This document shows, in pieces, positions 148-48,513 of a stretch of DNA of 64,000 nt. The DNA is taken from the IMG/VR virus record IMGVR_UViG_3300028833_000004. One strand, written 5' to 3'. Position numbers and translations under genes: made by a program. Position 1 is the stretch's first letter; the number at the start of each line of letters is the position of its first letter. Source of the stretch: a virus. Below the pieces are notes generated by a model that saw only the letters and a list, made by a program, of their open reading frames with translations, was not told the origin of the DNA and ran no database searches.

Positions 148-188
148 AACCCCTATCGGAGAAATCCGATAGGGGTTATTTTTTTTTT
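148..188. terminator. Bidirectional rho-independent terminator at the convergent junction
   Basis: 13-bp perfect stem aacccctatcgga / tccgataggggtt with a gaaa loop, then a T-run on the plus strand. The same hairpin follows the TAA (187-189) of the last minus-strand gene. Confidence 0.8.
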
Positions 189-3100
189 AAACTAAATGAG
201 TATCTTTTATTATACTAAATAAATCATTTGAGAAATTTAATAAACTATATTCATCAGACTCAATGGTTTTGGCTGCATCCTAGAATGTTTTTTGTATAAA
301 ATCAGTTCCAATTATTCCAAATTGATCTACTGGTTTAATTAAAGATTCATAAATATTCAATTCCCTAGCTGTTCTATCAAATAAATCTACAGTTGTAGCA
401 ACCGTAGCATTTTTCTTCAAATCTGAAAAATTTTCCATAATTGCTGCTATAATTGCTGATACTATGGCTGCAAATAGTAAATTAAACAAAAATAATTTAG
501 TATTTTCCCATTGTTGTGGATTTTCTCTGATATGTTGAATATCTCCAGTAGCAACATCATGAATTGTTTTAGCTGTAGACACGGCTAAACCTTCAATCGG
601 GTTAGCTTTCCATTCAAGAACTGGTTCCAAAGCCTCTCCTGTCGTCGTGTCAATTCCATTTTCAGAAATACCATTTTCTCCAGCGACTACCTTTCTAGTC
701 AATTTAATTTTATCATCATATTTGTAATATAATTTCTTACCTGAAATTGGATCTTCTAAATGAACTGTAGAACCTACCGATGAATCTATACCAACAGCCA
801 GATATTTTCTTATTTCCGCAGGCATGAAAGTTAAGAAATTGGTATACATAGTCCACCACCAACCTTTCTACATGTTTGCACGTTCCTCATGTCCATAATA
901 ACCATATATTAAACCAATCTATTCTTTTATTGAATTCTACTCCTAGACAGTATAAGCTCTTGGTAGAGGATCGTAAATTGGGTTATTTGAGTCATCTGTA
1001 ACCTAACCAAATCTTAATTCCCCACCCTAGGCATTTTTCCAGCCTTCATGAGAAAATTGTTGCATTTTGACTGTGTATAAAGCTTTCTATTCAACCCATT
1101 TTTTATCTTTTGTAAGATTTTTATGTCTATTTTTCCAGAAATAATTTATACGTTCATCTTTTTCGATGTCATAGACCAATTTACCATCAACTTCAGAATG
1201 TGCATTAAATGTACCATCCGCCTTCATTTTTGCAATAAATATAATCATTCTATTAAACCAATCTGGTGCAACTACATTTAAATATAACATTCGAGATCCT
1301 AAATTATGTATACCCCATCTGTCAAAGGCTAATGTTTCACCGATTACATTTAAATCTCTATCGTTTATCTAATAAACATTATTTATTGCATCTATAAATC
1401 CAAAATCTCCGGCAGATTTACCTCCTAGAAGTTGTTTTGATTTTGTTAAAAAGCCCTCACCAAAAACTTCCTCTGCAGCACTTAGTAAATGTTCAAATGT
1501 TATCTTATAATCATTTCTTATCTAATTAGTTAAAACACTACTTATATTTCTAATCCTACCTAGGAGCATTTCTTTTATAAATAGTGCTGGTCTAACTGCT
1601 ATTTTTGTAAGACTCTACATACTTTTAACAAATCCAATTGTTTTTAGTAAATCCTCATCTTCACTCTCTGTTAATGATGCATTATAAATTGATACTTTAA
1701 TACGATTCTTTAAAGTTTCTCGCTAATTTTGCATGGATTGACCTGTAGCTAATTCTGCCAGATTAATAATTGCCATCTAATGATCTACAGTTTTTAAAAG
1801 CTTTGTAAAATATATTTCCTTTATATCTGCAACTGCATATGACAGAGTTAATTTATTTAAATTAATTTCCCATTCAATTGGATTAGTTGAATTTACTCTA
1901 CTAGATCTATTTTTTGCACTTTCTTTATAATAATTAATATATTTTAATTTTTTAATATTTTCCTCACGTTCCTAAGCCTACTATTCATTTAATAAATTTG
2001 GCTCTAAATAATGTTTCCATTGAGAAACTTCTTTATGAATTGCTTCAGATAAACTTTTACCCTAAAATACAGATTGAATATTTTTAATAAATCCAACAGC
2101 TCCCTATCGTTCCTATAACGGTAACTCAAAATATTTACCATTATTTAAGAGAATATTCTTATAGGCTTCAAATCCATCAGACTTTTCTAACTCAGCATAA
2201 GACATTTTACGATATTTACTATTTAATTTTGTCATTCTATGTCGATTAAAAGACCAAAGAACTATTTTTAAATATTCACTCTATGCCGGAGTTAATCCTG
2301 AATTTTTATCATATGGATTTTTTAACATCATTGATGGATGTAAGCTTCCATCAGAAGAATGAATTAATAATGATTCATATGCGGATTCGTGATTACCCGT
2401 TAATGTACCTCGCAATGAAGTATCTTCATCTAAAAACTTTTTAGTAGCTAAATTTATTTCCTAAACTTCTTTTAAAAATTCAGCTTCTATCTATGCGGAT
2501 GCTACACTAAAAGCACCATCAAACTATCGCACAAGCTCATCAGGGCTTGCGTATGATACTGACGTATGTAATCCCTAAGCTATACCTGTAAGCATAAGTC
2601 CAGATTTATTAAATCTAGTTATATCACCAAATCTAAATAAATCAATGCCGGCCAAAATAGACTCATCAAATGTAAGACTCCTCATATGCATTGAATACAT
2701 TTCTTCCGGAGCCATATTTTTCATAGTTAACAATAACTGACTTATAGCAGCATATAATTTACCCATCTCTGAATTTTTATTATCATATTCAGATTGGTAG
2801 TCAGATTTTATATGATCTAGTAATTCTTCTAATTCATCTTCTGTTAACTATTTTCCGACATTTGCAGATAAAAAAGGATCCTATAAATATCTTATACTTG
2901 ATATATATAATAAATCAGCAACATGTTTACTTAATGTAACTACCGGATCAATAAAAATAATCTAATCTAGATCTTTCTCAACATCTTTAAAAATTTCAGC
3001 ATTTTCTACAACTTCTGGTTTATTATTGGCTTCATAAGATAATATCCTCATAGCTGTTAAAAATGGGGTAAAATTTTGAATAGTAGTATGTGATCCATTT

Positions 3101-4821
3101 ATCATTGAGATAGTTTTTATTGCAGATATTTTCGGCTACCCATCCTAAAATAATTCTCTATATTCAGCAATAGTTAATAATGTTTTTATTAAATATAAAT
3201 TTCCAACAGATGGATTTGGTAAATTTTTTGATTCTTTAAATTCACGTAAAACTGTTTGATCTTTTAATGCCGGGGTTATTAGACTAGATCTTGGATCTAT
3301 CATATAATTAAGCTATTTACTATCTGGAACAGGTACTATAAACTCATAAGAACCATCAGTATTTTTCATAGTTATAATACCCTAAGCCTCCAATGGTTCA
3401 AATTTAACATATTCCCATGAAGGACTCATATAGTGATATAATGTATAAGAGAATGCTGATGCCCAATCTTCATGTTTCTGTTTATTTAAAAAATTATTTA
3501 ATGCCTCTATATTCTTCGTTTTTAGAATCTCTATAACAGTTAATAATGAACCCTCAAATTTCTCTTTTATTGCTTTCTATTCTTGCTCTATTAACTCCTC
3601 TATAGTTCCTCTAACCTCTTCTTCGGAGTCTTTATTATATCCCACAAGAATATTATTATCTAATTTTTTCCAAGATACTACAGTATTCTCAGCACACACT
3701 GGATACCATTCACGATCATTATTAACAGAGTTTTCAATCTACTATTTAAGATATTCCTTGGTAGACTTCTCCAAAATACGTCCCGTGCATAATATATCCA
3801 CTCTGGTTTTTAGTTTTTCGTTATGCTTTTCAATTACTTCTTTTGGGAGAACTTTGCCGATTGTTGGAAATTTAGAATTTACAATTAATAGGGGGCCTTG
3901 TGAATTTTTTCCCAAACCTACTAATGGATCTTCAAAATCCTTAACTAAAATTTCCTATTTTTCATTATAAACAAAATTAACATTTCGAATCTAAATTCTT
4001 TCCAAAGGAACGTTGAAAGTCTTAGAAACCAATTTTCTATAAAGTTCTAGCTATAAATAGTGATTCTATAACGTCGGGACACTCATAGAAATATTTGAAC
4101 TTGTTTTAAAATCTAAAATAATCACATTTCCAGATTCTGTAAAAAAAATCCCATCGGCACGTCCCTACAATTTTGTATCTCCATCCTTTATCCAAAGAGG
4201 CACTTCACATTCTAAATTTCCTTCTCCAAAAGTGTCTACTAAAGTTCGTTTAAAATTTTTAATACTCTGCTCTACATTTTTTGCAAAAATTGTTGGATCT
4301 TTTGAATCGAAGTGGAGTAGAAAATCTCTCAAGTGAATATTAAATGCATCAGTCTCATCTCTAAACTATTTATTATCGACTAAGCTCTTCTAATAACTCT
4401 TGCAGAGTTCTATTAAATCATCTAAGGACTTTAAAGTCTTTTCCGAATTTCCATCAGAATACATCTAAATATATTTATGATATTTATCACCAAATAATCT
4501 TCTAAACTCTCTATAAAATTCCCTATTCTGTTTATTTACACCGTCTTCGGCAGAATCCTTGGAATAAAATTTCTACCCAAGACTAGTAACAGTATCAAAT
4601 CCTGTAAGAGTTGAACTATCATAAGTCCTTCTATTTTCATTAATATGGTTCTATATATTATTAAATTCTTCTGAATGGGTACTATAAAATGTAAGGTCTT
4701 GATTTAAAGCCTCAGAAAATCTTTCAGAAATTACTTTTCCCTGAATCTAACCTCTTAAGGCTTCTATTGTAGAAGCCTTAAGAGTTTCACCTTTATAATT
4801 TAATACATAAAAACAATTCAT
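187..4821 (-). CDS. Giant virion-block protein (1,544 aa with TAG as sense) with a RecB/Cas4-like PD-(D/E)xK nuclease motif set
   Basis: Every codon of the frame was inspected from ATG 4819-4821 (TAATG overlap with the upstream stop) to TAA 187-189. About 45 in-frame TAG and no TAA or TGA (hand count). Track ORFs 280-849, 1087-1290 and 2575-2766 are same-frame fragments. Motifs: GRADGIFF (D at 4153-4155), ILDFKT (4105-4113), [TAG]LELY (4039-4053). Confidence 0.8.
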
Positions 4822-7800
4822 TACTTACATTCCTTAGTTATTTGTTTAATTAACTCATCTTTTAGATATCTTGCCCTAATTTCCTGAATATCAGTATAAT
4901 ACCCCTGCTCATTTACAAAATTAACTCTGGCTTTTTGCATAAATGATGTTATTTTTTTATAATAAATGGCGTGGTTAATATCATAGGAACTTTGCGGAAT
5001 CTGAAGATTTAAGCCCTTAAATAATTCCCTAAATCCTAAATTAATAGTATTTAATAAGCCCTCTGAGGTTATTGTTTTTGATAAAGCTTCCTCAGACTTA
5101 ATATAATCTGATATTCGATTCTCTATCTCCACAACAATTTTTTCATCGAGATCTTCTTCTGGTAAAGTTTCTCCGAGTCCTTTATAAAACTTATTAATAA
5201 GTTCCCAATACACAGTCGGCTAATTGGCTCTAAGATTTGCCAACATTAAGTGTGTGAACTCATGTAAACCAAATTTTGCAACATATTGTTCAACACTCTC
5301 TGTATCTGGTTTTTTAGAAATATTAATAAAAATCTAACCATCCTAAACAGTTGCATTCCATCTCTCCTTTGGGCTATTTACTATTTTTACATTTGTATGA
5401 AACATTTTTGACAGATGCTCTAAAATTTCCTGCCCATATCCATAGTCTGTTTCATTTATTATAGTCAATGGTTCAGCAGTAATCTTTTCAGAATATTGTG
5501 AAGGTTCCCTGTAAAGCATTCCATTTAATAGATGTGTTTTTTCTATCTATAGTATTCCAGCAACATCTCCCTTAGAATTTATATATGAACATATTACATT
5601 ATCAGTTCCTACTTGTAAAATCTAGTAAGCAATGTATGCACGATCTCCAGATTTAGTTGTCCCGACCTTTGTTATAACATCTCCAGTTTTTAATGTTGTA
5701 TATTCTGTAACCTTTCCCACCTGATCTAATGAGTCTAAGTTAAATTCGTCATATTCATTTTTGCCATCGTAATAAACCTATGTTAGAGTATAAAACGTTT
5801 TTCTGCCTTTATCTGGTTTTATTATTGAAACTTTAGAATTTATAAAAGGTGCTGATTGAGCTAATTCCTGAATTTCATATTGTTTCTCAGATATTACTTG
5901 TTTAGGGATAATTTTATGGATAAATAAATCAGTGTCTTTTAATGCATTTTCCATAAATATTTCCCTAATGTTATTTATTGGAATTAATCGATCAGAAGTA
6001 GAAATTATAAACTAGTCATTTTGAACCTGTTTTATTGTCAGTTTCTGTCCATCATTTAATTCTATTGTATCTCCAAAAGTTAAATTGTTTAGAATTCTTA
6101 ATTGTATATCTTTTCCCATATCCTAAAAATTTTCAACATGTAAAGTTTTAGTTTTTGATGTTGCTATAGAATTCTCTGGAGAGATATATGCATCTACATC
6201 CTACTGTTTAGTTATTGGAAATATAGCAGTATTAACTTTCGGAGTATTAATAGATCTCAAAACCAGTATTGGAAGTATACCTTTTTCAGACTCATCATAT
6301 AAAATATCACTAACAACATATGTAACTCCTTTAAATGTAACGACATCATTAACTTTTAAATTAGTAATATTGATATGTTTTAGTTCATATTTTGTATAAT
6401 CTAGAGTTGTATCAAATTCGTTTAATTTATAACTTCTATTTAATCTTAATGTCTTGACCCTTTTAAATCCCTAATTCAAACCAAAGGTTAAATCAACTAA
6501 TGGATTATCTAAATTTTTAATATTTGTTATTTTTACATAAATACCCTACCCAGTTAAGTCTGAACCCATATAAATGTATCGTGTTCCATCCGAGTCTACT
6601 AATATATCTCCTTCCTTTGGTGCTATATCTGATTCTGCTTCTGAAACTTTCTTATAATAAATCTATTCATTAGTTAAAGCATTGGTATATAACTGTAAAT
6701 TTGTCCAAATTTTTGATTTTATATAATTAGTCTACTAATTATCATCTATAGATTTAATAAATGCCCTACATAGTTTAGATTTTTTAATTTTTTCAGACTT
6801 ATTAAGTAAAGCTCTAATATTATCCTCAGTTATTCCTTCTGTTTCTGATACATAATTTAATATATAATTTAATTTATCAAAGTCTGTAGCAACCCTTCCA
6901 AGTTTACTAGATATATATAAGTGTAATAATGTAACTAATGTATCCTGTGATAATTTACCGTTCTTATCCATTCCAATCTATTTCTCATTAATTACAATAA
7001 TTGGTGCATTACCAATATACTCAATATGTGACAAAGTTTCACTTGATTTATCCAATCTTATTATGACTGGTTGCTTTTCTTCAATAAATTTAATTAAATC
7101 ATCTCCAAAAAGATTGTCTTCAACCTCTAAATTTTTAAACATCTCTGAAATTGAAATATCCTACAGAAAGGTTCCTGAGTTTTTTGTACCAGATAAAAGA
7201 CTTGCCCAATCACTCACTCTAGTTAGAATATGATTTCCTAAATCTGTTAGAGTTTTTTTCTCTATAAAAATAGGTCGACCATTAATTCTATCTTCATTAG
7301 TTTGATTAATTAAAACAGGATACTAGAATTTAGTAGTACTTTCCTTCGAAACTGCCGTTCCTGCAGTTTTTATAGTCACGTCAAGAATATACTACTAAGC
7401 AGTTTCAATTGATGCCCCTTCTCTAATATCAACATTTACAGTACTATATAGAGGGCTTATTGTTTTTATCCAGGCTTCTATCGACTCTTTATTAAATTCA
7501 ATATTTGCAGCAAATTCTTTCGGAGACATTGTTTGAATAAAAGACTTTTTTACTGAAGTTGTAACCCTTGTTTCCTTATCTGTATATGTTCCCTATTGAG
7601 CAAGTGCATTAGCGAAGGGTATTATATCAGCTCTCCAAGCGAGCATTTGCTTTACTGCTAAATTGCGCACTTCCATATTGGAACTTGCAGTTTTTTGAGC
7701 TACTTCATCTAAATATTCAAACTATTTATCTATATAATCTGTAATATTACTAAATCTCTTCATATTTTGATATATACAAGTTGTGCTTCCTTTTATATCA

Positions 7801-10800
7801 TTTCTTGAAGTAATAACATTATATAAATAAAAAAGTTCACCAATCGTTAAAGGTTTGCCTATAACACTATGTAATCCAGATGGAATCTGTGCTATCTAAT
7901 CAAATCCTTCGGAAACCATATTTATACTAAAAGCAGTAGCTTGATCTTCTTTTGCTAAGAATGCATCTAAGGTTATATCGTAATAAGGTAATTCAGTTAT
8001 ATAATCTTTTACAACCTGTAATCTCTATACAAATGCATTATCTTTATATTTTTTAATAATGCTTGGAATAAAGGCATTATTCATAAAATCAATAAATCTA
8101 TCAACTTTAATAGAATCTGTAACACCAATAAATGCATCATCTACTAAATCTTGGTTCCAGTTTGGAAATAATTTAGAAATCTCAGATTTTTTAATGCTAT
8201 AATCACGCATCTCTTCTAATCCCTTTTGTATAAAATACTAGTCTATTAATCTAAGTAATTTATTAGAATAATTAACATAATCTTTAGTTCCATTAGGAAT
8301 TATTTGTGCGTATTCAATATTAGTCTCCCCATCATTATCTTTATCATCTTCAATATTAATATTTTCATCTAAATCTAAATCATCTAAAGAATGCTTATCT
8401 ATAATGGATCTAAGTAATGATGCTTTTCCAATAGTCTAACTAATCAATCTAACAGTTTTACTGATGCTTTCAAGCTATTTATTAAAATGTGGGCTAGTTA
8501 AAACCACTCTCATTACATTTACACCAGATTTCGTAAACTGATACTGATCTAGGGCATTTTTTCTATACTCAGAGTTATTTGGATCAAATAGTCTATCAAA
8601 ATTTAATGGCTCCTAACCATCTACCAATATATTTTTTCCAGGATTTCTACTTAAGTAATCTTTAGCAATATTACGTTGATTCTGTGTTGAAATATTTATA
8701 TTTTTAAATCTCTGAATTTTGCTTTTTGATAAACCTGTTAAAAATCCAGATAGTTCAGTATATTTACTTTTAACTCCCTAATTTACTTTGAAATAACTTG
8801 TTAAATCTCTAAGTTCAGATGCTAAATCACATACTTTTAATAGTGATCTATAAGTATTCTCATCAAATTCCTATGCGTGTTTTTGAATTAGTTTTTTAAT
8901 ATCATTAGTATCTAATTTTATCAAGGAAAATTTACTTGAGTCTAAATCTTTAGCAATGGTGTTCATTAAATTCACACATATATTAATAACATCGTCTATA
9001 TGCATTCCATAAGTAATCATTGCTAATGGTAATGATAATAATTCTGGACGCCCATTCATTTTTGCTAATGCTAACTCTTTAGCATTATCAGTTGCTAGAG
9101 ATATAAAAATACTCAATGTATCAGCAACATTTGGTTCAAAGGACCTTGAAAAATATAAAAACTTTTTAAAAGCCTCTTCTGAAATATCATCAGATTTAAT
9201 AACACCCATCTTTACAGCTGTTTCATAAACATCCATATAATGTGCACCCCTAGTTCCTAAAGCAGCCCACTATTTATTTTTAAACACCTATAATAGTGGA
9301 TGCTATGTTATTCCAAACACTCTTTTATAACTTTCATCAAAGGCTTCCCACGAAATTTTAGTATTAGCTAGAGTAAAGAAATGTTCATGAATATTCTTTG
9401 CCTCTCCTGTTTTCGCATCTATTACTGTAAAATTTAAATCTATATTAATCTAGTCTTCAGGTGAAATTCCATTCTGTTGCATATTATAAAATTGCTACAA
9501 AGCCCCGGCAGCCTTTATAGCATTTGCGGCAATACCAACATCCGTTTTTCCAACAGCATTTTCTCGCTAAATTTCAAATATTGTAAATGGATTTAAATCA
9601 TTATATTTCTTATTACCACCGGCATACTTTGTTATAACTTTAGTGACTGGTTTTGATTCCATAGGAACCTATGCAGCTTTTAAATTACGTAAATCAGACG
9701 CCGCTGAATATATGCCCTACATAATTCTATTCTTTTTAGCTGCTAAACCCTCATTCCAATTATTATATTTATTTAGGTTTTCAATTAAATCTGAAGGCTC
9801 TCCGATATAAAAAATATTTTTACTTTTATTTTCTTTATTATTTAAAAATTTAAGAATATTATCTACAATATCTAATTTAGTTACTGGATCGACTATTGAG
9901 AATATAAATTCAATATCCTAAATAGTTAAAGTGGGTTCTTTTAAAACTAGAGAAAGCTCATTCCCAATTTGGATATCTAGTGATGTTATTAATGGAAGTT
10001 TTCTCTTAATTTTATCCGTTAATATTTCAGAGGCTTTTAATTTATTCATATCAACCCCACCATCCTCAGCTATTTTTGAAATTGTTTTTCCTGACGGACA
10101 GGTTAACAATAAAGATCTCTAAATAGTCTCTGGAGATGAATAGTCTGTAAATGCATTTCCAGCAATTCTTCCTCTAGAATCCAACTCATACATCATAGTA
10201 TAAGCTTTATCTATATCATAGTCAGAACCCTGAAACCACATTTCCCATATATTCATATAACCATTATTTTCAGAAGTTTCTGTAAATGCAACCGTTTCAT
10301 TGGCCAAGAATGATTGAAATGCTTGCGATGGAATACGAGCAGATACAGTTTTTAATGAAGTATAAAAAGACTATTCTAATTCTTTAGTGAGTTTCTTAAT
10401 AGATCCATCAATATCTTTAAGATTAAAGGACTTATGATTTAAAAAAGAAGCGTTTCCATAATAAGCATTGATATCTTTAGACATCGGTGAAAGGAGCACT
10501 CCCATATTTACTTTACTAATTCCCTAAATAAAAATTTCTATTTTAAGTTTTGAATTATTATTAGGTCTACTAATAGAAACTTTTAAATCATCTGCCCTTC
10601 CCTATAATTTAATCCCCTCAATAACTCGACCATACTCATCTGTTATTGATACTGTTCCATCATTATTCTATATTGTATTTGAATTTATTAAATTATCTGA
10701 AATCTAATTAGCTGAAAAAATTATATCAATATTATCTAAAGCAACAGCTGATGCACCTTTGCCATAATTTTCTAAATTTATTGATGGATCTAATTTATAT

Positions 10801-13800
10801 CTTTTTGCAACAAGTTTTTCAAAATAGTCAGGGTGTGTTTTTATATATGACATAGACTGATCCACACCATATTGAGTTCTATTCTTAGGTAAAATTTCCT
10901 CACCACCCTTATATTTAATATTAGTAACAAAAATAGCTCCATATTTATTTATTGGGCCTGATATATTAGGTCTTCCATCTTTGAACCATTCTTTAAATCC
11001 TTTTAATGACTCAAAGTAGTATGGTGTATCATTCTTAAGTCCTCGGATATTAGCTCTTTGCCACATCTATAAGATTTTATCGTCTTTATTTTTAGCTAAT
11101 TCTTGTGTACTTTTTAATAACCAAAAGTTTCCACCATCCCAAGTAATCTAGGTGGTTTTTAATTCGCGTTTTTGATCATGAATTTTCCAAATTGGCTAAG
11201 TGTGACATAATTCAAATGCGACCTATAAATCTGCGGGTGTTTTGATTAAAATATCCCTAACACCATCAGAATATCTCTCACCAACTGTTAAATTAAAATT
11301 AAGTTCTGTAATTTCTTCACGTTTAAATAATTCACTATTTTTAAAGAATTCAGATATAATTTCATCCTATGTTAATGGTATGAGATACTCTTTTTGATGA
11401 TCTTTTATATATTCATTAGCAAGTTTTATTATGTCCGAATGAGTATAAACAACTCCATTAATATCTTCATAAACACCAATAATTCCATTTGCTGGGTTTT
11501 GAACGACCGCTACACCATTAAATCTCTATTTTAATGAATCCTAATTCAGTTTAGTAACTAAACTTGAAGTTGCTAAATAAAATAACTACTAATTACTATA
11601 AGGTAATGTAGTAAATTGCCCAGAGGTTTTGGCAAATTCTTCCATCTATTTAAGCAATGTTTGAACAATTAACTCTGCATTACTTGCCACCGAGTTTGTC
11701 TATAATTGCTTAAGGAGTTCCTTTGCCATGTATTTATGAAATTCTGAATGATCTGGTGTATCCCATTTTTTAATAAATTTAGAAAAACTATCTTCTATAA
11801 TGGATCCCAAAATTTCATACATATTTTGAACGAGCTCAGAATTTTCACCATTAAAAGCAATAGCTGTTATAACCTAAGTTAAAGCAGGGATTTCAGAATC
11901 TTCACCTTCATGTGAATAATCCTACTAAATTCCATATCTTGAAGTGTTTATTTTTGTTGTAACTAATGGAGAATTTGTTCCAAATATACTTTTACGTGTA
12001 TTTAGAACACCCTAAGACTCTTTAGAAGACTCCTCATCAACTAATTTCATAACCAGCTTAGGTTTAATTTCATCGCTGGTGTCATATTCACTAATTAAAT
12101 CTGCGACTATATCATGTGAATCATCTGAAAATTCATATCCACTATTGTCAGATCTTTTATAACATTCAGCTTTACCAAATGCTTTCCATAAATCATATAC
12201 AGTATTAATTTTAAAACCTTCTGATTCTAACTGTAATCCTAAAGTCTTAGCAACCGCAAGGTCTGGAACTAAAGAATTATCATCTGTATAAGTCCAGGAA
12301 AATTTTATAGTTCCATTTTCAGGATTAACCTAAGTTTCACTTAAATGGGCCATTCGGCCATTAAATGAGTAATAAATATCATAACCTAATTCAATCTTAT
12401 TTTCTTGCCCGGTCTTCCAATTTTCAAGAAATTCCTATGTTATTGGCGCATTATACATTTTACTCATCAATGCATATCCATCCATACCATTCCACTAATT
12501 TTCATTAGTAGATGCGGAAGTACTTCTAATCCATGCATTATTCATTTCATAGTCAGCACATTTTAATTGTGTGAATCCGCCTAAATATGGTTGTAGTGCA
12601 ATAATTTTCAGGGAGCTTGCAACATGCTTTCCAAATGTACTTCTCTCTTCATAATGTCTACACATTCTAGTAGAAAACACAGCACCGTCATGTGCCTTCA
12701 TGACATCAGAATTTCCAAAGAAATTCTGTACAGGCATTATATTATGCTCCATATGAGCAATTTTAATTTTATGTGGAAGCCCATATTTATTACCCCCCAT
12801 AAAAGGTTCATATGAAGCTGGGCCAGAGTTATAACGTTTTTTACTTTTATTAAGTCTAACCCCTTCTTCGTTCGATATGTCTTTCTAAGTTTCTGATGAA
12901 TACTCTTTTAACTCTTCAGATGAGTGAACTGATGAGCTTTTATCATGTATCCAAGCATGCTTTAATGATACCTATAAATCAGCCTCTCTAGTTAAATATT
13001 TCATATAGTAATATTTTTTTAAAAAGGCATCTCTAAGTGGCTTTAATTTTTCATTTAATTCTCCTGCAAACGGGCTTTCTAACTATAAAAATTCAGATAT
13101 TAATTTAAGGCTGTCTGTTTCAGATCCTTCTTTATAAGGTAAATCAAATAGTTGACATAATCTAGCCTATTCTTCTTCACTAAGGGTGCTTAAAAAATCT
13201 GTTGGAAGTATTTTACATACTTTAAAATTATTAAGATCTTTAATAAATTCATTATATCCCTCATCTAAGACAGAATTAAAATAATCCTAATTATCGGCCA
13301 TTCTAATTTGTTTATATAATGAATTATTAATACCAAGTCTGAATGAATTATCACCTAATTTATGAATTGAAAAATGAACTTCTCGTAAGATGTTGATATC
13401 AGAATCTGGATAATTTTTCTGAAAATTTCCTAATAATTCTGATAATTTTTCCTAAGCAGCATATTCAGATGTAAATTCCCCAAGACCTTCTAAGTATTTG
13501 CCTAATGCCAATATATTACCAAACTGTTGACCAAAGATTTCCCCAGCGTCCTAGCATATTTTTGATTCAACTGCTTTGTAATAACTTTTATGCTAGTTAT
13601 ACCCAATATTTTTATAATCCTCTTCAGAAAGATTATACATTGTTGTATACCCCTCATCTGATTTAACTAAGCATTTCATGTTCCAAACGCCTTTAGCAAT
13701 TCTTATTTTATCAGAGTATGCTTCAATCTAATTTAGAAATATATTTTGTTTAACTATAGATTGCAAAAAGTCGCAGTACATACTAATTCCAGCCTAATCT

Positions 13801-15878
13801 GCAACCGAAACTTCTGGAGCCTAAAGAAATTTTGTAGAGTTTTTAGATTTAATTGCAACATCTCCACACATTACAATATGTGTAATATAGCCAGAATCTT
13901 TAGCTCTCTTTCCCCATGCAATAGTCTATCTTGTTAATTCAGGATACTTTACTAATAGATTTTCATTTTCAGAACCCTCCATCATCAGTTTAAAGTCTTC
14001 CAAATTTTTCTAAAAATCGCATATTGTATTATGTACTGACTCAGAGGCTAATTGGTCATTATTTTGATTTAAAACTTTTTCAGTTGTAGCAGAATTTAGG
14101 GAAATTACAACATCAGAAAATTCTATATAATCATCATTTCTTTTTAATTTTTTTATTATATTTTCAACTCCAGTTTTTAAAGCACTTTCTGACGGAATTT
14201 CTGAGGTATTTCCAAATTCCTAGATAACATATTTTCTATAAGCACGTAAGAATTTTCCCAATTTCTGGATATTATTTACGAATCTATCCTAAAGAAATTC
14301 ATTTTGTAAAGAAATTCCTGTAATAGTTTGAAACATAAACTACATTCTTTCCGAAAAAATATCGTTGAATGTATCAAATGTTCCAGAGGGGCCTATTTGA
14401 AATTCATCAAAAAATAAATATTTTTTACCCTCACTAAGTGTTCTAGTAAGTGCATTTCTAATACATGATATTACCCCCTATTTAGAATTCTGCCTTTCTA
14501 AAGGGGATTTCAATTCTGATGATCCCTCTGGTGTGATCATTTGATAAGCCATTGGTGAAGAGCTTAATCTTTGCACAACAGCAGCTGCTGCATTATCCAT
14601 CGAGGTGTCCGATCTTTCCTTTACAGATGAATTTTCACTTTTTTGTACCTTTATATAAGAATCTAGATATTTTTTTAATTCTGCTGAAAGAGCTTTGCAA
14701 GAAATCTCTGAAGCTCTATCTTGAATGTGGGGATTTTCTAGCACATTTATTAAAGCTTGAATTTTATCTTCAATACTTATTTCAGATTCTAAAACATCTA
14801 TTAAATCCTGTTCTTTATATCCTAAATCAGTTCTAGCTCGCTTTAATGTTAATAGTAATCTACTCATAAATTTAGTAGACATAGTTTCCCCATTTGGAAG
14901 CTCTATGGATTCAACAAAATCTTTTAATAAATTAGATAGTCGTTTTTCTGCATCTATATCTGAAAAGTTATCAGCAAATGATCCAGGTAAATCTTTAGTA
15001 TTTTCTTTAATATATTTATCTGGAATGTATGCTAACTATCCAAAGTAATTTTTATTAACTTTAATGGATCCGTTAGTTAAATCTTCAACAACTTGATCAA
15101 AATTCTATAATATATAAAAAGCTGCTATTGGATTTATTAAATTTTTTCTGGTTTGAGTATTTTTTAATTCCTAGATAGGCTAGAAAATTTCTCCCCTATT
15201 TTTTAATTCTTTACTATAAATATAGTTCCAGAATGTATCTAGCACCATTTTATAATTTTCTAAACTTTTCTAAGTATTAGAAGAAGACAGCTAAATTCCA
15301 AACATTACAGGAAGTTTCTACTAATCTTTTAGATATCTAATAATTGTGTTTAAAAGTTCCTGTCTATATTTTAATAATACATTAGATAAATCTTCTGTAG
15401 ATCTTACTATTGTTTTTCCCTATGAGTCCCAACGGATAAGCCCCTTTAATCTGTTTTTAGTATCTCTGTAAACTGCTTGATTTATAGAGTTAGAAAATAC
15501 GGGTATAAAACTTGATGAACTGTTTTTTGTATTAAAAAAATCTCCTGGATTCGGTACATGAATATCGTTCAACTATTTTTTAATGTTAATAGCTGTTGGT
15601 TTTATTACCATACATAAATCCTTAGAAATCATTTCATTTATTTCATCTAATGTATCCTGCAACTTCTATCTAATATTAATATCCGTAGATGCATCAATAG
15701 CCATCTAAATTAGATATTTTTTTTCCTGAGTAGTATATACAACCCAATCAAATATCTAATCATTTTTAAATTGGGAGATAAGTGTATCATCTCCCAATTT
15801 TAACTTATTTAACCATTTCTAAGATGTCTCAGTTTTAAGTGTATTATTTTTAAAAAGTCTACAATATAATGTTCCCAT
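4821..15878 (-). CDS. Giant virion-associated RNA polymerase polyprotein (3,685 aa with TAG as sense), crAss-type DxDxD loop, HExxH motif near the C-terminus
   Basis: ATG 15876-15878 to TAA 4821-4823. All codons were inspected and only TAG interrupts the frame. Nine track ORFs (4821-5213 through 14478-14882) are same-frame fragments. GSDYDIDKAY (DYDID at 10209-10223) fits the metal-binding DxDxD of two-barrel RNAPs as described for crAss-like virion RNAP. LHEFTHL (HExxH) lies at 5256-5270. Confidence 0.75.
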
Positions 15879-15888
15879 ATTTATATTT

Positions 15889-18800
15889 TTAAGTAATATT
15901 CTAACAGAATTCCAAAGAATCCGCAAAATCCTCGATTATCTTCCTAATATCGTCTCTATCAAAATTACCCTAAATAAAACTACCAATTACAAACTATTTC
16001 TCATAAGCAAAATTAAATCCCAGTTCAATTACGCTTCTAATAAGTCCTCTATCAAGTTCAATAGTCTCACCATTAAAAGTAATTTGTGCGGGATCTGTAA
16101 GTATATAATTCTATAAATGAGTTATTACATTTACTAATGGGAGGTTGTAATACATACCTCCAAGCTACTTGCCAAAAGCCTTTATATATTCAATAACGTC
16201 AGATCCACTTAATGTACTTCCATCGGATATTTTAACCTGCGCATTTATTAGTACCTGTTCAAAAGCTTTTTCAAACTCCTCAATATTTTCAATTGAATCT
16301 CTAGTGTCCGGTACATCTTTAGAATCATTTATAATTTCCAGATTACCTTCATCTATTACAAAATTTGCATATTCATAACCCCTTTCAACAATTATTGATT
16401 CTGGGGGGAGATTTATAAGATCCTCTATTGGTAGTGATTCATAGGCAAACTCAGAAAGGTTTTTATTAATATACCTTAAAATAGGGTCTAAAATTAAGTC
16501 AAAATTGCCATTAGTAATACATGTATTTGCTAGATCAAATTGTATTGCTTTTCCAGTGGCTTCAGCTGTATTTTTCTATCTTTCAAACTAGGCTATCTAT
16601 AACAAAGAGTCTACAAATGTATCTATTATATTTTTCTATAACCCTGATTCTCTTAGTGCTTCCTTTAATTTCTCTTTTAAAGATATGCCAGGCGTAGTTT
16701 CACCCGTAGATACAAATTGATCAAATTCATTTAATATCTATTTATATTCCGGATTTTTAACAGCGTGTAATAATAAATTTAATAGTTTGCGATGTCCATA
16801 AAAACCTAAGGTATGTTGACCCGAAACTGCTGGTCTAGATTTCCACCAAATTCCATTATTTTTTTCAACACTGTCTCGATAGTATGTTAATATATCTGGA
16901 ATTATTGACTTAACCTATATAGGAATTTTTTCACCTATAGGGCTTTCTAAGATTATCCAATATTGATCAGAAAAGTATTTAAGTGATTTTTTTCCCTCTT
17001 TTGTAAAAGGAAGTCCTCTATATTGCTCAAACCATTTTAAGAATTCATCTCCCTATGTATTAATGGTATGTTTAGTGGGATCCCAAACATCTTTTTGAGA
17101 ATATTGAAATCCCATATCGATATAATTAGCCAAAGTAGTTCTTTTATATTTAAACTGATCTCCAAGTAATTCATAATTCAACCCAAGCGTTGGATCGATA
17201 ACTAAATCTCGCATACCAGTCTACTAATAAAAAGCTGAATTAGTGGATACGTTCCCCATAAAAAAGCTTTTGGAACTTTTACTAATTAATTCAGATTTTC
17301 TTTTTGTTCCTTTCTGACGTAGTCTAACTACTAATGGAACTCTTCCACTATCAAAATACTCAGAATAAAGATCTTTAATTAATTCACTACTTGTTCCATC
17401 TTCATCCTTTGTATATCCAATTCGCATAACAGTAAATGGGAATATTTTAATTTCCCCATCATCTGTCATCTATAGTGTGACTGTTGCCCTACATATATTT
17501 TCTGGAATTGGATCTTTATCATTTATTTTTTCAAAAGCCCAGTCCTAGGTTTTATTATATTTATGAATTAATATTTCAAAATCTGAACCACGGACAGCTA
17601 AATCCTTTCTTAAAAAGAGTATAAAAGATTTAAATGATTTTAAAAAATCCTTACCAGAACGTAAAGCTAAATTTTTATCTATATTAAATCCTTTAGGGAG
17701 TTTATCTGCCTCTAGTAACATTTTAAAATGACCTACCTCAGAATTAGAACTCCAGGCCTCCAACCATTTTTTATTATAACCTTTAATTTTTTTAATGGTT
17801 TCTCTAGATTCACCTGTTCTAATATACCATCCCTAACCTATAAAGAATTTGGAATCGTTTCCCCACTATTTAGAAATTCTTCGACTTATAGTTGATCTAG
17901 TTTTTTCTTTCGGAGTCTCAGATGATTCTTCAGATATTTTTTCTGAAGGTGTTTTAGATTCTTCTTCTGTCATATCGTCAATAACAGTCGAATCTAATTC
18001 TTCTAATTCAATATTAGTAAGCTCTTTATCTGGAATTTTTTTTACCTTTTCTGGAGACTCTTCTAAATCTTCTGTTTTTAATTTTGGTATTGTATTATCT
18101 AAATCTTCTAATTTTGGAAGTATTTGTTTGAGTGTCTCAGATAATTCCTATCCAAAATTTGATGAGATTTTACTAAATAACGCCACATTTTTAACAACAT
18201 GATCTTTATTTAAATTAACTGATTCAAATAAATCATCAGAATCAGCCTGAATAATTAAAACACCATTTTTACCACGTGTTATTGTTGTGTAGCATTTTGT
18301 AGCATTAGTCTCTGTTGAATGTATATCTGAATTTTTAGCCTTCTACTTATATGAAATAACATAATCATATTCAGCGCCCTATAAATCTTTCAATGTTTTT
18401 ATAACAAATTTGTCAGAGCCTAACCCAAAATTCTAAAGATCTGCTTTTACCGCATCTGAATTATCATAACTATCAACAACTACTACAATACTTCCAGATA
18501 TATTATCTATAACATTCTAAATTTCATCATTATCCTATGAATAATGGATTCCTAAAAATCCATTTGATTTATTTATAGTATATTCAAAAGATATTTCTGA
18601 TAAACCATCTAGTAAATCCCTAGAAGTATTACTATCCCACGCAGCATCACGTTCAATATCTTGGTTACCAATGCCATAATGTTTACTATCTAAAGTAGAT
18701 TTTAAAATAGAGGTGTTATAATTCATCGCTTGATTGTGAAACCTCCATCCGCCAGATAATTTTGGAATTGATATTTTTCCCAAATATCTTAATCCACCAG

Positions 18801-21800
18801 TAAATATTGCATTATTAAATTCAATAGTATCCGATTGCTAAGTTTCATCCCCCAAAGCTATAATAATACCCTTATTTTCAGACACCATTTTCTATAAAAC
18901 AGCATATTCAAATGCATTTAATAAAGTACATTCGTCTAAAATAAAAGCGGTTTTATCAGAATTAATATAATGAATTTCTGGAAGTGTGTTAAACGTTTTT
19001 CTAGTTGGCTGGGAATCTTCTAAAATTTTACCATCTACTATAGGTAAATGACATACAAATTCAATAACAGTTTTATCCCCATCTTTTATCTACACTATAA
19101 TCTAGAGATCGTCTGGATTAGCTCTATTAATGGAGAAGCCATCTGGAAGTTCTACTTCTTCGCCCTTAGATAATTTAGAGATATTACTATTAATAAATTC
19201 CTCGGCCATCTTTTCATACTCTTTATAATTTTTAGAGTATGTTTCAAATTTTTCATCTGAAATTAATTTATGTAACTATTTAGAAGTTACACTTTCATCA
19301 GAATCACCTCCAAATAATTTATATAACTCATCAGTTTTCTCCTAAGCTAGTGCTGTTGTTGCTATTTTATATCCCTTAGATTTTAAATAATCTTTTAATA
19401 AACTAGATATAAAGGTCTTTCCAGCGCCACCCTCACCAAATAAAAAGATCATTCTCTCCATTTGATCCTTTATCCAGAGCTCTCCTGGGTTATTATTGAT
19501 CTGATTATTAATATATCTATTAACTGAGTCAAATATTTTTGAGTTTTCTATATAAGTAATTATCCATTCCAGTGCCTCGAGTTGATCCTATCTAGGATAA
19601 AAGTTTGGATTTTTATCAAGAACATCTTTCTATATTATAGTCTATACACTTTTTGGATCTATGGCTAAATACCCAGAGAATTTATACGCCCAATAATATC
19701 CGTTAATTATTGAATTTCCAGCCGCGTCTTCCTGATAAATGTTAGTAATATCTGAATCGAAATCACATAAATTTATCCCAGAATCTGTTTTAGAAATTAA
19801 ATTACCTGATATTAATTCTGATGGCATGATAATATTCTATATTATCCAATCATCCAAATCATCAGAACCTGCCTGAGATACATATTTTTCTCTAAGTGCC
19901 CTAATATTTTTACAGATTTCCTATTCACATTTTAAAATAAATTCTAATTGTGCACTCTCATCATCTGGAATATCCTGATTAATAAGCTCTTCATCGAGAA
20001 GATAATAATCCTTTTTATCAGGCAAAGTTAGCTTAGGTCTTCCTTTATAAAAAGAAACTTTACTTTTTATAAATTTTTTCTTCTAAGCCTTAAATACCTG
20101 TAATTTATTAGCAGTTAATTCCGAACTAATCTGTTTTAAATCACTCAAACGGAACTGAATATCGCTAATCATTGCTTTAACCATTCTAGCATCTTCAGGA
20201 TCAATTAAACCTAATAAATCTTTTTTATGTGTAGGATCTCCATATGCATTCAGATACTAAACACGCAACTGATTAAATCCATACATTCTCTAGTCCTTCT
20301 CTAAATCATATGAAGTCATTCCTTCTATGACTGCCATCATAACTTTTAAAGTTTGTATGGTGGAATCAATTGCTTCAAGTTCAGAATCTGAAAAATTGGT
20401 TTTTTCAAAGTCGCCTTCTCCACGCTAAACTTTTAATTCCTAATCAATAAAATATTTACCTAAAGTTGATCCTTTTGTTGTTCCATTTATAGCTAAATAT
20501 AATTTATCAAAAACCCCCAATAATGGATTTTTTACCGCGGTTGAGCTAGTTACCTTAGTATTAAATTTGTTTATTTGATCAAATTCAGGCTGAAGATATT
20601 CTTTAAGAGCTTGCCCAACACTTGTTCCAACTGGATAAGTTATTCCAATTATTTTAGAAAATTGTTCAAGTTCTTCTGGTGTATTTACTGGTTGGTAATC
20701 TTTACTTAACATCTCTCCGAATCTTTGTAAACCATCTAATGATTTTAACGATAGATCTTGGAAATCTGATTCATATGCTACAAATTCATCCTCTCTAGCC
20801 TCAAAAAAAGGTCTTACTTTATTTAACTTATCAATCAACTATATCTTAATAATCTACTCTATACGATCTAAAATACCCTATTCAACAGCATCATCATCCG
20901 CAATATAATCGTATAAATCATTGAACTATATTCCAGATATTTTAGATAAGTCTGCGTTTGAATTATAATTAATAACTCCAGAACGAATGTCTACAGTTGA
21001 GTCAGAAGTGTCTGCAAGTTCATTTATTCTATGTCTATATATAGAAGACTCGTCTCCATATCTCTCATTTACACGGGCAATTAGATTTTTAACAGACTCT
21101 TCATTAAGTTCAACAAATCTTGCCGCAAAAGCTTCAGAATTAATTAATTCTGCCAAAACTTTTTTCTATTCATCATTAAATCCTACAAATTCAATAACTC
21201 CATTATCTATGAGGGCTTTAGCCCAGTTAGTCTACATTCTCTATTTAAGAGTAAATGCATTAGGATGGGCTTTTATATAAGATACTAGATTTTTAGTTCT
21301 AAATTCAGAATTTACTTTGTCAAGTTTGTCCTTAGCTGATGAAACATTTGCATCATACTAAATATCCTATTTTAACTCTTGACGAGCAGAAAGAAGCTAT
21401 TTCTCTTTTTCATCATCATTCCAGGAGTCAATTAAATCTTTATCAAAAAAATGGTCTATAGGCAATTGATCTATATATTCAGATAAAGTTTCTGTATTAA
21501 TTATAGACTTTTCAATAGCTTTTATTACAGCATATTTATGCTCCATATCAACAAACTTTGATAACTCTGGTGAGATTCTTTGTTGTATAGAATCAAATAC
21601 ATTGACCATTAAATCCACATATTTAACAAACTCTGGAGTAACTTCCCCAAATTTATCGTGTGTATATAACTTATATAATTCATCAACCTTAGCTTTGGTT
21701 AATTTATCTGGATCTGGAGAATCGTCTTCTAACTAATCATAACTTTTATTAACTCCATCCTTATTTAAAACATTTTGATAAAAAGATTCTTTATCCAAAC

Positions 21801-24279
21801 CTAATAAAGCTTGACCCAAGAATGGGTTAGATATTAAAGTTGCACCTGAATATGAATCTACATAAGCTTCTCCAGAGAAAAATTGTCTAGAATATTTTAA
21901 GGCCTATTCAAATTTCTTTTTATTGAGTGCTTTTGTATTTTTAGGTTTTTTATCCTCATTTTCAACGGATTCAACTGATTCAGAAATATTAGGGTCTTTA
22001 GAATCTTTTGATTCTTCGGACTCTTCCAAAGAACCTGCGTAAACATCATAGGCATCTTTTAAATCAATTAAGCTTGACTTAAAACGCTATTTAATATATT
22101 CCTCAACCTTTGTATCCTTCCAATCAGCTTTAAATTGTTGGATAAAAATATTTTTAACATCCTCATTTAAATTTTCAATTCCAGTTCCAACTAAAGAATC
22201 TTTAATAACCTTATCAATAGTTTCAACATGTTTAATAGCAGCATCAACAATCATGTCTGCCTAAGTTATCTGCCCGTCCGCCTTCAATTCATGAACCTAC
22301 CCGTCTTCACCTACAATACCTGTAGCAGCTCTCTTATTACTTAATAATTTTCTACACTTCTATAATTCATTTATAAGTTCATCTTTTCGACCATAAAATA
22401 GTGCATCTATGATATCATAATCTTTTTCTAGATCGAATCTAGACTTATAATTAGGATCTATGAATGTTCTTCTAATCCAAGGATCTAAGTGCATTTCCTA
22501 TACTGAAAATAAACCACCACCTAAAGCACCACCAATAAGAGTCTATAAATATCTTGAGGCTCCTTCTTTACTAAATACATTCTACCATCCTCCAAAAGAT
22601 CCCTATTTACCTGTAAAACCTAACCATGAAAGTGTATCAATAATTCCTTTAATGCTATCTTGAACAACTTCTTCAGAAACCTCTTCTACACCTTCAACTA
22701 CCATATTTTTCCAAATATCCTCCCCAGAGGCTCTAAAAGCATCGTCTAGCCAATTTAAAGTCTTTGCTTTAAATGCTGATATACTATTTAATAAAGACTG
22801 TTTAGATTTTGTGGCAACTGCCTATTCAACGTCTTTCTAAATATCTGAATATAAGGATTTGGCAATTTTTATAATAGGCCTTCTTGTAATTTCTCGATCA
22901 TATCCGGTGGTAGCATCTAAAAACCATGTTCCAAGTCCATTGGCCGTTTCATTAAAGTTCATTATTCCAAACAATGCTGAGGCACTTAATAAACTGGCAA
23001 TTCCAGCCGTTCTTTTATCATACCCGCTTTTAATTGCATCATTATAAACATCAGACACTGATATAAGACCCATATAACCTAAACTAAACGCTTTAGCCGC
23101 CTTATTCATTGATTCGGCATACTTTTTATAACGTTCAAAATCTTGGGCGGTTTTTAATTCCTTCGGAACTTTATATAAAAAATTGGCAAGGGATGCTGCA
23201 GCTCTCTATTGATATAACTGTCCAAATATATCTGAAAGCATATTTCCTATTCCTTCAGCGGAAAATAAATTCTACTTACCTTTCTAAGACATACTTGGAT
23301 TAAACTTTCTAAACCAATTCTCTAAAGATGTCGCACCATTATATATAGCAGATGAATCATCTCCTAAAAAGACACTTTCCATTGATTTATAAAAAGTAGG
23401 CATTACTGAAGCTAATCCCCAAAGGGCCTAAAATGCTCCATAATAAGCATTAAATCCAGGAATCATATAAGGTAATACAGAAGCTATAGTCTTCATAGCA
23501 ACTCCGCCTAATGATTTTTCATATCCATCAGAATCGAAGAAATCCATTTTATTTAATGTTGTTCCTTCTTTAGTCAGAACGTCCTATACAGCTACAACTT
23601 CTTTATCCAAAATTTCCCTATTGCCAAGTAATTCAGTAAAGTATTGGCCATTCTCATCAGTAATAAATTCACCTTTGGCGTGGTATCCTTCCTCACCTGT
23701 TATAGGATTTTTCTAAAAACCGTCCTGATCATATTTAGCATAAATTAATGTTTCTCCAAATAAATTGGAAAATAATCCTCGACTTTCTGCGGAATCCTTG
23801 AGTCTGGTTCCAGTTACAGGATCATATATTTTACCCTTCTATGCAGCTTCCCATGGGGTTAATTTAGGTTCACTTTGGACATTTAAACCTATTATACCAG
23901 TGGACTGCTGAAGGGGATTGTTTTTTTCTACTTCTGGTTTATAAAGAACATCTTTAACCCTAGCCCCAAGCGGTTTATATCTGCTGGTCGGACTATATTC
24001 TAAATACTGACTTAAATTATCCACCAGATGATCATTATCTAACTAAAAATATCGCTGTTCAGCCAGAGTATAAATCTAATTAAATTCATCTTCTTTAAAG
24101 TTTCCCTATTCATCAGTAAAGGCTTTCTTTATAAATGGTTTGGATTTATATTCCTCCTTATCTAATAAAGCCGTATTATTAATATTTATATCATTCTATA
24201 AAAAATCAACTACGGTTGAACTGGGATCACTTAAAAGTGTTGCAACTAATATATCATTCGGTTTTTGAATAGTATCCAT
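15889..24279 (-). CDS. Giant protein (2,796 aa with TAG as sense): hydrophobic N-terminal third plus an SF1 (RecD/Pif1-like) P-loop helicase core
   Basis: ATG 24277-24279 to TAA 15889-15891. The frame was inspected codon by codon and only TAG interrupts it. Walker A GEGGAGKT at 19414-19437, Walker B FILDEC (DE at 18931-18936), motif III GDET[TAG] at 18838-18852. Hydrophobic stretches lie around 22500-23500. Confidence 0.75.
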
Positions 24280-45018: not shown

Positions 45019-45033
45019 TTGATCATATACGCT

Positions 45034-48490: not shown

Positions 48491-48513
48491 GAACTAAGCT
48501 ATAACCATAAATA

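Follow-up and report, generated by a model that had tools for sequence, protein, structure and literature searches.

A probable gp66-family virion RNA polymerase with a zincin-like tail, encoded by a TAG-rich giant viral gene

The window considered here is a stretch of 64,000 nucleotides (nt) of viral DNA (IMG/VR record IMGVR_UViG_3300028833_000004), and the gene of interest occupies positions 4821–15878 of its minus strand. It runs from an ATG at 15878 to a TAA at 4823–4821 and comprises 3,685 codons, corresponding to a protein of 3,685 amino acids (aa) and 420.7 kDa, hereafter called the giant. From profile comparisons, conserved motifs and structural models, we conclude that the giant is very probably a virion RNA polymerase (RNAP) of the gp66 family, known from phage phi14:2, with a zincin-like tail. 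A preliminary description, made from the sequence alone, had proposed one frame of about 11 kb interrupted by TAG only, and this frame holds up: it contains 93 in-frame TAG codons, no TGA and one TAA, which is the terminator, and no TAA or TGA splits it internally. The stop-to-stop frame is 4821–15935, with the ATG at 15878 as the first in frame, and the other five frames of 4821–15878 carry 183–525 stops each. A chance origin of the frame can be dismissed, because an 11-kb frame without TAA or TGA is not accidental in DNA of 30% GC (guanine plus cytosine), and because nearly all long frames of the window lie on the minus strand and are open only through TAG read-through.

The most conserved part of the giant is the predicted catalytic, beta-prime-like barrel (aa 1848–1891, positions 10206–10337), which reads RIPSQAFQS...WFQGSDYDIDK and lies in a TAG-free segment (aa 1837–1919). 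The GSDYDIDKAY motif on which the preliminary description had based its claim of a crAss-type RNAP is present, and its DYDID metal-binding loop (aa 1886–1890) is found exactly at the coordinates given there (10209–10223), sitting in GSDYDIDKAYTM with RIPSQ 38 aa upstream. Conservation of the giant peaks at aa 1801–1900 (53% mean identity), followed by aa 1301–1500 and 2001–2400, and QGSD.DIDK hardly varies among 46 homologs and more than 20 unsplit giants. The counterpart of the loop in gp66 is 1361-DFDID-1365 (bioRxiv 10.1101/2020.03.07.982082). Its surroundings agree as well: the giant has ARIPSQAFQSF...(32 aa)...GSDYDIDKAYTM and gp66 has YRIPNQGQSS...(32 aa)...GSDFDIDKMYVM, so that RIP[SN]Q followed by GSD[YF]DIDK.Y.M is common to both.

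For a comparison over longer distances, gp66 (GenBank tag Phi14:2_gp077, PDB 6VR4, 2,180 aa) was extracted with its neighbours from the phi14:2 genome. In BLAST, many members of the giant's family give weak collinear high-scoring segment pairs to gp66 1314–1370, 1469–1573 and 1603–1660, and the giant itself gives three. A profile of 12 unsplit relatives (profile A1) aligned to gp66 1305–1663 in hhalign with a probability of 93.1% (E 3.1e-7, 343 columns), pairing RIPxQ, GSDxDIDK, SPID/TPID, GK..VGI.AN and DNAK. When the giant was used as the master of a profile with 15 unsplit full-length relatives, aa 2045–2313 aligned to gp66 1473–1658 (84.1%, E 7.5e-6), with two further weak collinear alignments (aa 1305–1485 to gp66 1087–1267, and aa 1842–1896 to 1316–1371). 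The RNAP core of the giant (aa ~1833–2315, positions 8934–10382) is homologous to gp66 aa ~1305–1663. Its paired elements are VPME in the giant, SPID in relatives and TPID in gp66; VGKTDVGIAAN in the giant and GGKSGVGITAN in gp66; and SLATDNAKELALAKMN in the giant and FVDNAKDPYINDGN in gp66, the last two pairs containing GK..VGI.AN and (A/V)DNAK, respectively. An AlphaFold2 (AF2) model of the core of a relative, P0020 (aa 482–1672, 25% identical to the giant), with a predicted local distance difference test score (pLDDT) of 78.8, was compared with 350,542 PDB chains in Foldseek. The top match was 6vr4_A (prob 1.00, E 1.6e-3, 830 columns, query-normalized TM score 0.24), which is the only credible one, the next having a prob of 0.09. 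The match to a two-barrel RNAP that the preliminary description had suggested looking for was thus obtained at the level of both profiles and a relative's fold.

Several observations weigh against this assignment. The link to gp66 rests on profile-sequence comparison, motifs and a Foldseek score that is modest (E 1.6e-3, TM 0.24); the modelled structure is that of the 25%-identical P0020 and not of the giant, and the catalytic-loop segment of this model has a pLDDT <50. Over its full length, the giant gave no matches in Pfam and PHROGs, its phmmer search of PDB sequences returned noise only, and an hmmsearch of PDB sequences with profile A1 found no match. The giant differs from gp66 in that identity is so low that single-sequence searches, and searches of the PDB with hidden Markov models (HMMs), fail. 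Finally, barrel 1 was looked for by a targeted hhalign comparison of the sequence preceding the catalytic barrel with gp66 850–1310, which gave no match.

For this second, beta-like barrel, whose conserved basic residues had been proposed as a check, we can point to two weak candidate sites. One is the family-wide motif GGEEILPK (aa 1658–1665, positions 10884–10907), which contains a conserved Lys, lies 228 aa upstream of the catalytic loop and takes the form P-A-E-I-I-x-P-K in relatives of ~2,000 aa. The other is the region just before aa 1305, within a well-conserved pre-catalytic region (aa 1000–1500, positions 11379–12881) that aligns weakly to gp66. Here, aa 1305–1485 align weakly with gp66 1087–1267, the end of barrel 1 and the connector (E 0.015, prob 3%), and the relative P0007 aligns with gp66 1126–1239.

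The last ~210 aa of the giant resemble a gluzincin, and we predict from modelling that they form a conserved metallopeptidase-like module. An alignment of family C-termini shows, over ~210 aa, a V..G.I.IN hairpin, an HExxH motif, an EE..v.R helix and a Cys within the last 1–3 residues, and 18 diverse module sequences have N, H, E, H, Y, E and C as invariant columns. The giant was left out of the family HMM, which still matches it at aa 3479–3684 (positions 4827–5444, E 2.6e-36), where these elements appear as a VQDGQIFIN hairpin, an HEFTH helix, a Glu helix DEKIVVEIE and a terminal ..TKECK. The zincin-type motif LHEFTHL named in the preliminary description is present at aa 3538–3544 and spans 5247–5267; the interval 5256–5270 assigned to it was a few bases off and too short. 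It ends 142 aa before the C-terminus, in line with the ~150 residues claimed. HEFTH itself (aa 3539–3543, positions 5250–5264) is the invariant HExxH of the module, and Glu3579 in DEKIVVEIE (5142–5144) aligns with the invariant Glu of the EE..v.R helix and is a candidate third zinc ligand. The penultimate residue, Cys3684 (4827–4829), corresponds to the near-terminal Cys that is kept in nearly all family members of 2,000–5,300 aa. The giant ends in ..ITKECK (4824–4838) and gp66 in ..ITKQECK, and the phi14:2 protein gp078 ends in ..NTIC.

The zincin assignment is supported by an AF2 model of the C-terminus of P0009, the closest relative, which has core pLDDT values of 67–89 and zincin topology with the HExxH and Glu helices present. 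Nearly all of its fold neighbours in the PDB belong to the HExxH+E peptidases, namely anthrax lethal factor (1PWP/1J7N), selecase (4QHJ), abylysin (4JIU) and M1 aminopeptidases. With lethal factor and the mini-gluzincins, the module shares a small beta-sheet, the HExxH helix and the helix with the invariant Glu. Lethal factor uses HEFGH, Tyr728 and Glu735, a similar HExxH...Y...E layout. Among viral models (BFVD), prob values reach 1.00, with matches to phage 'Lethal factor', 'SprT-like', polyvalent and Flavobacteriia phage structural proteins. Unlike lethal factor and the mini-gluzincins, the module has no sequence match in the Pfam and PDB peptidase families: a Pfam scan of 18 members gave noise and one weak M78 match, PHROGs contain no model for it, and its profile gave no relevant match among PDB sequences. 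Three points tell against a peptidase of this type in the giant. The mean pLDDT of the module model is 62, the PDB fold matches are individually weak (best E 0.15, prob 0.89), and the zincin of phi14:2 gp65 (GenBank gp076) goes unrecognised by the module HMM.

A fourth point concerns the giant alone, in which a short deletion between ..FYKG and DEKIVVEIE (window 5145–5180, aa ~3567–3578) removes the Tyr loop that is conserved in most relatives, so that, judged by its sequence, the predicted peptidase could be impaired. The module might then be catalytically dead here and play a role in structure, packaging or ejection, for instance as a capsid docking signal in which the terminal Cys is functional. 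The giant resembles gp66 in its ..ECK terminus and differs from it in that gp66 has no HExxH anywhere, which indicates that the terminal motif can work without a peptidase. We nevertheless regard a dead module as unlikely, since the giant retains the Asn, H3539, E3540, H3543, the Glu helix (E3579) and Cys3684, the two His, the Glu between them and the Glu helix being invariant in the family. Moreover, P0091 and P0082 also lack the module Tyr, which may therefore not be essential.

TAG is read as a sense codon throughout the window. Frames no shorter than 150 aa sum to 23,206 aa with TAG as sense versus 4,568 aa with code 11, in-frame TAG codons number more than 500 across the 64 kb, and the genes neighbouring the giant likewise use TAG as sense, with TAA or TGA as their terminators. 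From codon usage and homolog alignments, we conclude that TAG behaves as Gln in the window (genetic code 15). In the giant, 93 TAG codons stand beside 91 CAA/CAG codons, which makes TAG half of the Gln codons. They are evenly distributed (10–16 per 500 aa), the longest TAG-free stretch being 185 aa, and no TAG-free stretch covers an entire domain. Homolog residues at the 93 TAG columns are 21% Gln, compared with a background of 5% and with 18% at the 91 CAA/CAG columns, a figure to be read with the caveat that database translations of recoded relatives may themselves put Q for TAG. In the related contig L001, the invariant Q of QGSD is encoded by a TAG codon.

This bears on the possibility that the frame does not yield one protein, either because TAG termination or partial read-through gives shorter products or because the assembly is an artefact. 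ARAGORN found no tRNA genes in the 64-kb window, hence no suppressor tRNA(CUA) there, which weighs against full translation, and with 93 TAG codons a read-through of 95% per codon would give <1% full-length product. We consider this explanation barely credible. Homologs align unbroken across the TAG positions (P0052, for example, to giant aa 47–3685), the TAG columns are enriched in Gln, the neighbouring genes share the pattern, and independent assemblies of relatives have the same architecture. A suppressor tRNA could lie in the genome outside the window; any such tRNA must come from there or from the host. TAG density is uneven among the genes of the window. The gene of the major head protein (47099–48508) has 1 TAG in 469 codons and its neighbours at 44236–45399 and 46194–47042 have 1 TAG each, in contrast to 30 in 621 codons at 26146–28011 and the 93 in 3,685 codons of the giant. 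The recoded codon seems to be avoided by the most abundant structural proteins.

Homologs of the giant were sought in a collection of 5.8 billion proteins, using two queries of ~1,250 aa from the giant. One set consisted of 8 proteins of ~1,900 aa covering giant aa ~115–1889, and a second set of 38 proteins covered the second half of the giant or represented unsplit relatives of ~2,000 aa. All 8 'first halves' terminate within WFQGSD(Y/F)D, and MDKAYTMMY is the start of many 'second halves'. Unsplit counterparts of 3,400–4,150 aa, forming at least 17 clusters, align end to end with the giant and share GSD[YF]DIDK at about 1,840–2,100, the C-terminal HExxH and the terminal Cys. The giant is a typical member of a populous, mostly unannotated metagenomic family. 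It is indeed far larger than the known virion RNAP, as had been remarked (3,685 versus 2,180 aa), but its size is not exceptional, 3,400–4,150 aa being the norm of the clade. We regard it as a divergent, enlarged form of the known crAss virion RNAP and not as categorically new. In 50,697 GenBank phage records, tblastn searches with the core and the major capsid protein retrieved only two unannotated gut 'Bacteriophage sp.' records. Giant genes of this kind are invisible to Pfam, PHROGs and gene callers using the standard code.

The relatives differ in what accompanies the polymerase. Those of ~2,000 aa (P0020, P0021, P0024, P0027 and P0031) carry an N-terminal ART-PolyVal domain (E 7e-21) and a gp65-like zincin with HExxH at ~230–370, in addition to the C-terminal module, and other relatives carry a DUF7831 or a cpYpsA SLOG domain. 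These variable domains indicate that the polymerase is used as a carrier for effector-like domains. Polyvalent proteins of phages and conjugative elements, with the Pfam domains ART-PolyVal and LPD, were reportedly described by Iyer et al. in 2017. Such proteins resemble the giant in being very large, multi-domain and thought to be delivered with DNA; they share ART-PolyVal, DUF7831 and cpYpsA domains with its relatives, and NADAR and LPD23 proteins contain the C-terminal module as well. The giant itself differs in lacking those accessory Pfam domains and in having a polymerase as its conserved core. Two much longer proteins, P0152 (5,096 aa) and P0189 (5,305 aa), have HGSDFDIDALF at ~3,900–4,100 and the same C-terminal HExxH module, and do not align with the giant elsewhere.

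Introns account for the split members of the family. The contigs L001 (157,640 bp) and L002 (166,311 bp) encode a protein of 2,776 aa or 2,556 aa, a split giant and a PDDEXK_1 protein of ~1,550 aa, and an insert with a LAGLIDADG_2 endonuclease gene lies between the two halves of the giant. In L001, the insert (15796–16674) has the exon junction GSDYDI | DKAY, the upstream exon ending in T and the insert in G, and Rfam detects two halves of a group I intron flanking the endonuclease open reading frame (ORF). In L002, the insert (~15586–16887) interrupts GS | DYDIDKAY and contains a complete group I intron (63.2 bits, E 2.6e-15) scoring above the Rfam gathering threshold; its inferred 3' end is an A and not the usual G. 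P0007 points to a third position, after GSDFD. The introns of relatives occupy at least three positions in or next to the catalytic-loop codons, corresponding to window 10209–10232. Judging from these sequences, homing introns repeatedly occupy the catalytic-loop codons in relatives, and the window carries an intron-free allele of the RNAP gene. These introns also bear on another reading of the giant, a polyvalent cargo protein with a degenerate, non-catalytic RNAP-like relic. Such a relic would be in keeping with the extreme divergence from gp66, the absence of a database family match and the negative result of the targeted comparison for the second barrel. We consider it highly improbable all the same, since the catalytic loop and its flanks are the most conserved part of the protein and nearly invariant in the family, and homing introns in relatives target these codons, as expected of an indispensable sequence.

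According to Yutin et al. 2021 (PMC7886860), the intron-rich Zeta group of crAss-like phages has genomes of 145–192 kb with stop-codon reassignment, many introns including LAGLIDADG group I introns, almost no GenBank BLAST matches, and RNAP ORFs that are disrupted 'within the DxDxD motif'; the name 'Echekviridae' has been proposed for this group (PMC12386605). Stop-codon reassignment is found in the window too, and relatives of the giant likewise lie on contigs of 157–212 kb, have introns in DxDxD and have almost no GenBank matches. On this circumstantial evidence, the window probably derives from a phage of, or near, the Zeta group, although its RNAP gene is intact and not fragmented. Targeting of the catalytic-loop codons by introns would explain part of the puzzle of the disrupted RNAP ORFs in these genomes. 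The locus offers an intact, intron-free example of a larger, very divergent branch of the gp66-type enzyme. Within this branch, conservation can be used to tell essential parts, namely the GSDxDIDK barrel, the SPID, GK..VGI.AN and DNAK elements and the terminal Cys, from dispensable ones.

The genomic context of the giant mirrors that of gp66, which also lies between two giant co-directional genes beside a structural block. The upstream gene (15889–24279, minus strand, 2,796 aa) has a Walker A motif, GEGGAGKT, and its stop lies 10 nt before the ATG of the giant; it takes the position of phi14:2 gp078, and its ortholog in L001 (40% identity) has a faint AAA_30 match. The downstream gene (187–4821, minus strand, 1,544 aa) has a PD-(D/E)xK-like motif, ILDFKT, and no HExxH. 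Its ATG overlaps the stop of the giant (TAATG), its ortholog in L001 (45% identity) matches PDDEXK_1, and its C-terminal part resembles aa 1150–1355 of phi14:2 gp076 (gp65 in the paper on gp66). The three genes are tightly packed downstream of capsid and tail genes, in the order found in phi14:2 (gp078-gp077-gp076) and in L001 and L002. All three phi14:2 proteins are structural proteins verified by mass spectrometry. The only PHROG match elsewhere in the window is the major head protein, in the same minus-strand block. A fusion of gp66 and gp65, whose lengths add up to 3,601 aa (2,180 + 1,421), was considered as an origin of the giant and rejected, since the gp65-like protein has a gene of its own downstream and since the module HMM fails to match the gp65 zincin.

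To our knowledge, gp66 is the only enzyme of this type with a solved structure, in a self-inhibited state whose activation is unexplained. We propose that the giant is a single-chain, two-barrel, DNA-dependent RNAP of the gp66/QDE-1 type, which would be packaged in the virion of a TAG-recoded crAss-like phage and injected into the host, the three Asp of GSDYDIDK holding the catalytic Mg2+. By extension from the biology of gp66 and PhiCrAss001, it would be made late, when TAG is read as Gln, and stored as capsid cargo with its two neighbours. It might then leave through the tail, partly unfolded and either before the DNA or together with it, and refold to transcribe early genes. The virions of PhiCrAss001 contain three RNAP-associated cargo proteins that are ejected partly unfolded (PMC10172136). 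The virion RNAP of coliphage N4 offers an analogy only: it is packaged in the capsid, injected and transcribes early genes, with a central catalytic domain and long termini (PMC13434306). At ~3,500 aa it is of similar size to the giant, but it is a T7-like single-subunit 'right-hand' polymerase and not a two-barrel enzyme.

For the tail module, we prefer the reading of a latent peptidase that would travel with the polymerase and act after ejection. It might trim or activate the self-inhibited polymerase and the neighbouring cargo, or cut a host target. This specific role is put forward tentatively, as one possibility. The fusion of an RNAP with a zincin has as such already been noted in the crAss literature. 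Orthologs of gp65, gp66 and gp67 are fused as a 'huge polyprotein' in some phages, and proteolytic activation has been hypothesised (bioRxiv 10.1101/2020.03.07.982082). A self-processing polyprotein, as envisaged in the preliminary description, is by analogy the same hypothesis. In relatives of the giant, the core and the module are never separate genes, except in the intron-split ones, which neither supports nor excludes processing. Like the gp65 zincin, the module is an HExxH metalloprotease-like domain physically tied to a crAss RNAP, which in the case of gp65 is sometimes within one polypeptide; it differs in standing at the RNAP's own C-terminus and in having no detectable homology to gp65. 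The covalent union of an RNAP with a conserved, uncatalogued zincin-like domain makes proteolytic activation of a virion RNAP, a long-standing question, testable by point mutants.

The distribution of the module suggests another role. An exhaustive HMMER search found it in 1,072 cluster representatives (P0047–P0191 among the hits), not only at the C-terminus of RNAP giants but also in many stand-alone proteins of ~300 aa and at the C-termini of polyvalent-type proteins of ~830–1,060 aa with NADAR, DUF1848, LPD23 or DprA-like domains, which are unrelated to RNAP. Rather than process its own chain, it may act during entry as an injected effector or as an enzyme of the lysis type, with a host protein or a peptide of peptidoglycan as its target, and the link to the polymerase would serve joint delivery only. 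The fold neighbours ranked best are of the toxin type (anthrax lethal factor) and include phage 'Lethal factor' proteins, and digestion of peptidoglycan has been raised for the gp65 zincin (bioRxiv 10.1101/2020.03.07.982082). Against an effector stands the retention of the module at the extreme C-terminus of RNAP giants of 2,000–5,300 aa across very deep divergence, which speaks for a role tied to the polymerase or to the handling of cargo. We give an effector role about the same limited chance as the latent peptidase.

The terminal Cys could be a regulator or a packaging signal, which is speculative. In a more elaborate form of the latent-peptidase reading, the HExxH+Glu module with its near-terminal Cys would be a latency-controlled peptidase shared by cargo proteins that phages inject: in the capsid, the Cys would cap the zinc as a cysteine switch, and once ejected and refolded, the peptidase would fire, release the self-inhibited RNAP and cut giant cargo proteins into functional parts. 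We find this doubtful; if true, the cysteine-switch module would represent a new and general way of activating enzymes delivered by virions, spread over more than 1,000 protein clusters. The main interest of the locus lies in the coupling of module and polymerase, the conserved terminal Cys and the intron hotspot at active-site codons.

The preliminary description had expected extra modules from the size of the protein, and these are present: relative to the 2,180 aa of gp66, the giant is longer by ~525 aa ahead of the catalytic loop and by ~980 aa behind it. The N-terminal ~1,000 aa (12882–15878), part of this extension, have 14–28% identity to full-length relatives and contain no domain recognisable in Pfam or PHROGs. 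Most of the C-terminal excess is formed by aa 2701–3478 (5445–7778), which are poorly conserved (11–19% identity), vary between relatives and likewise contain no recognisable domain. The extra ~1,500 aa would be lineage-specific and fast-evolving, and may, as in the N4 virion RNAP, have a part in packaging or ejection. By eye, four alike short segments, KEGDILVDSDGTRYIY, KVNDVVTFKGVTYVV, TFGDTIELNDGQKLTI and KTGDVITKVGTT..AYIAYQI, can be seen in window 5445–6600 (aa ~3090–3440) and suggest small beta-domain repeats; a self-BLAST of aa 2991–3500 for these repeats (..GD.I....G..Y..) gave no significant internal repeat.

Elsewhere in the window, two further genes stand out by eye. The one at 51910–54177 encodes a long array of leucine-rich repeats of ~23 aa (SVTIPNSVTSIG), and in the product of the one at 54867–59324 numerous SHAEG.xTxA repeats precede a globular C-terminal portion. 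TAG codons are scarce in both genes, whose products have the look of fibre or receptor-binding proteins.

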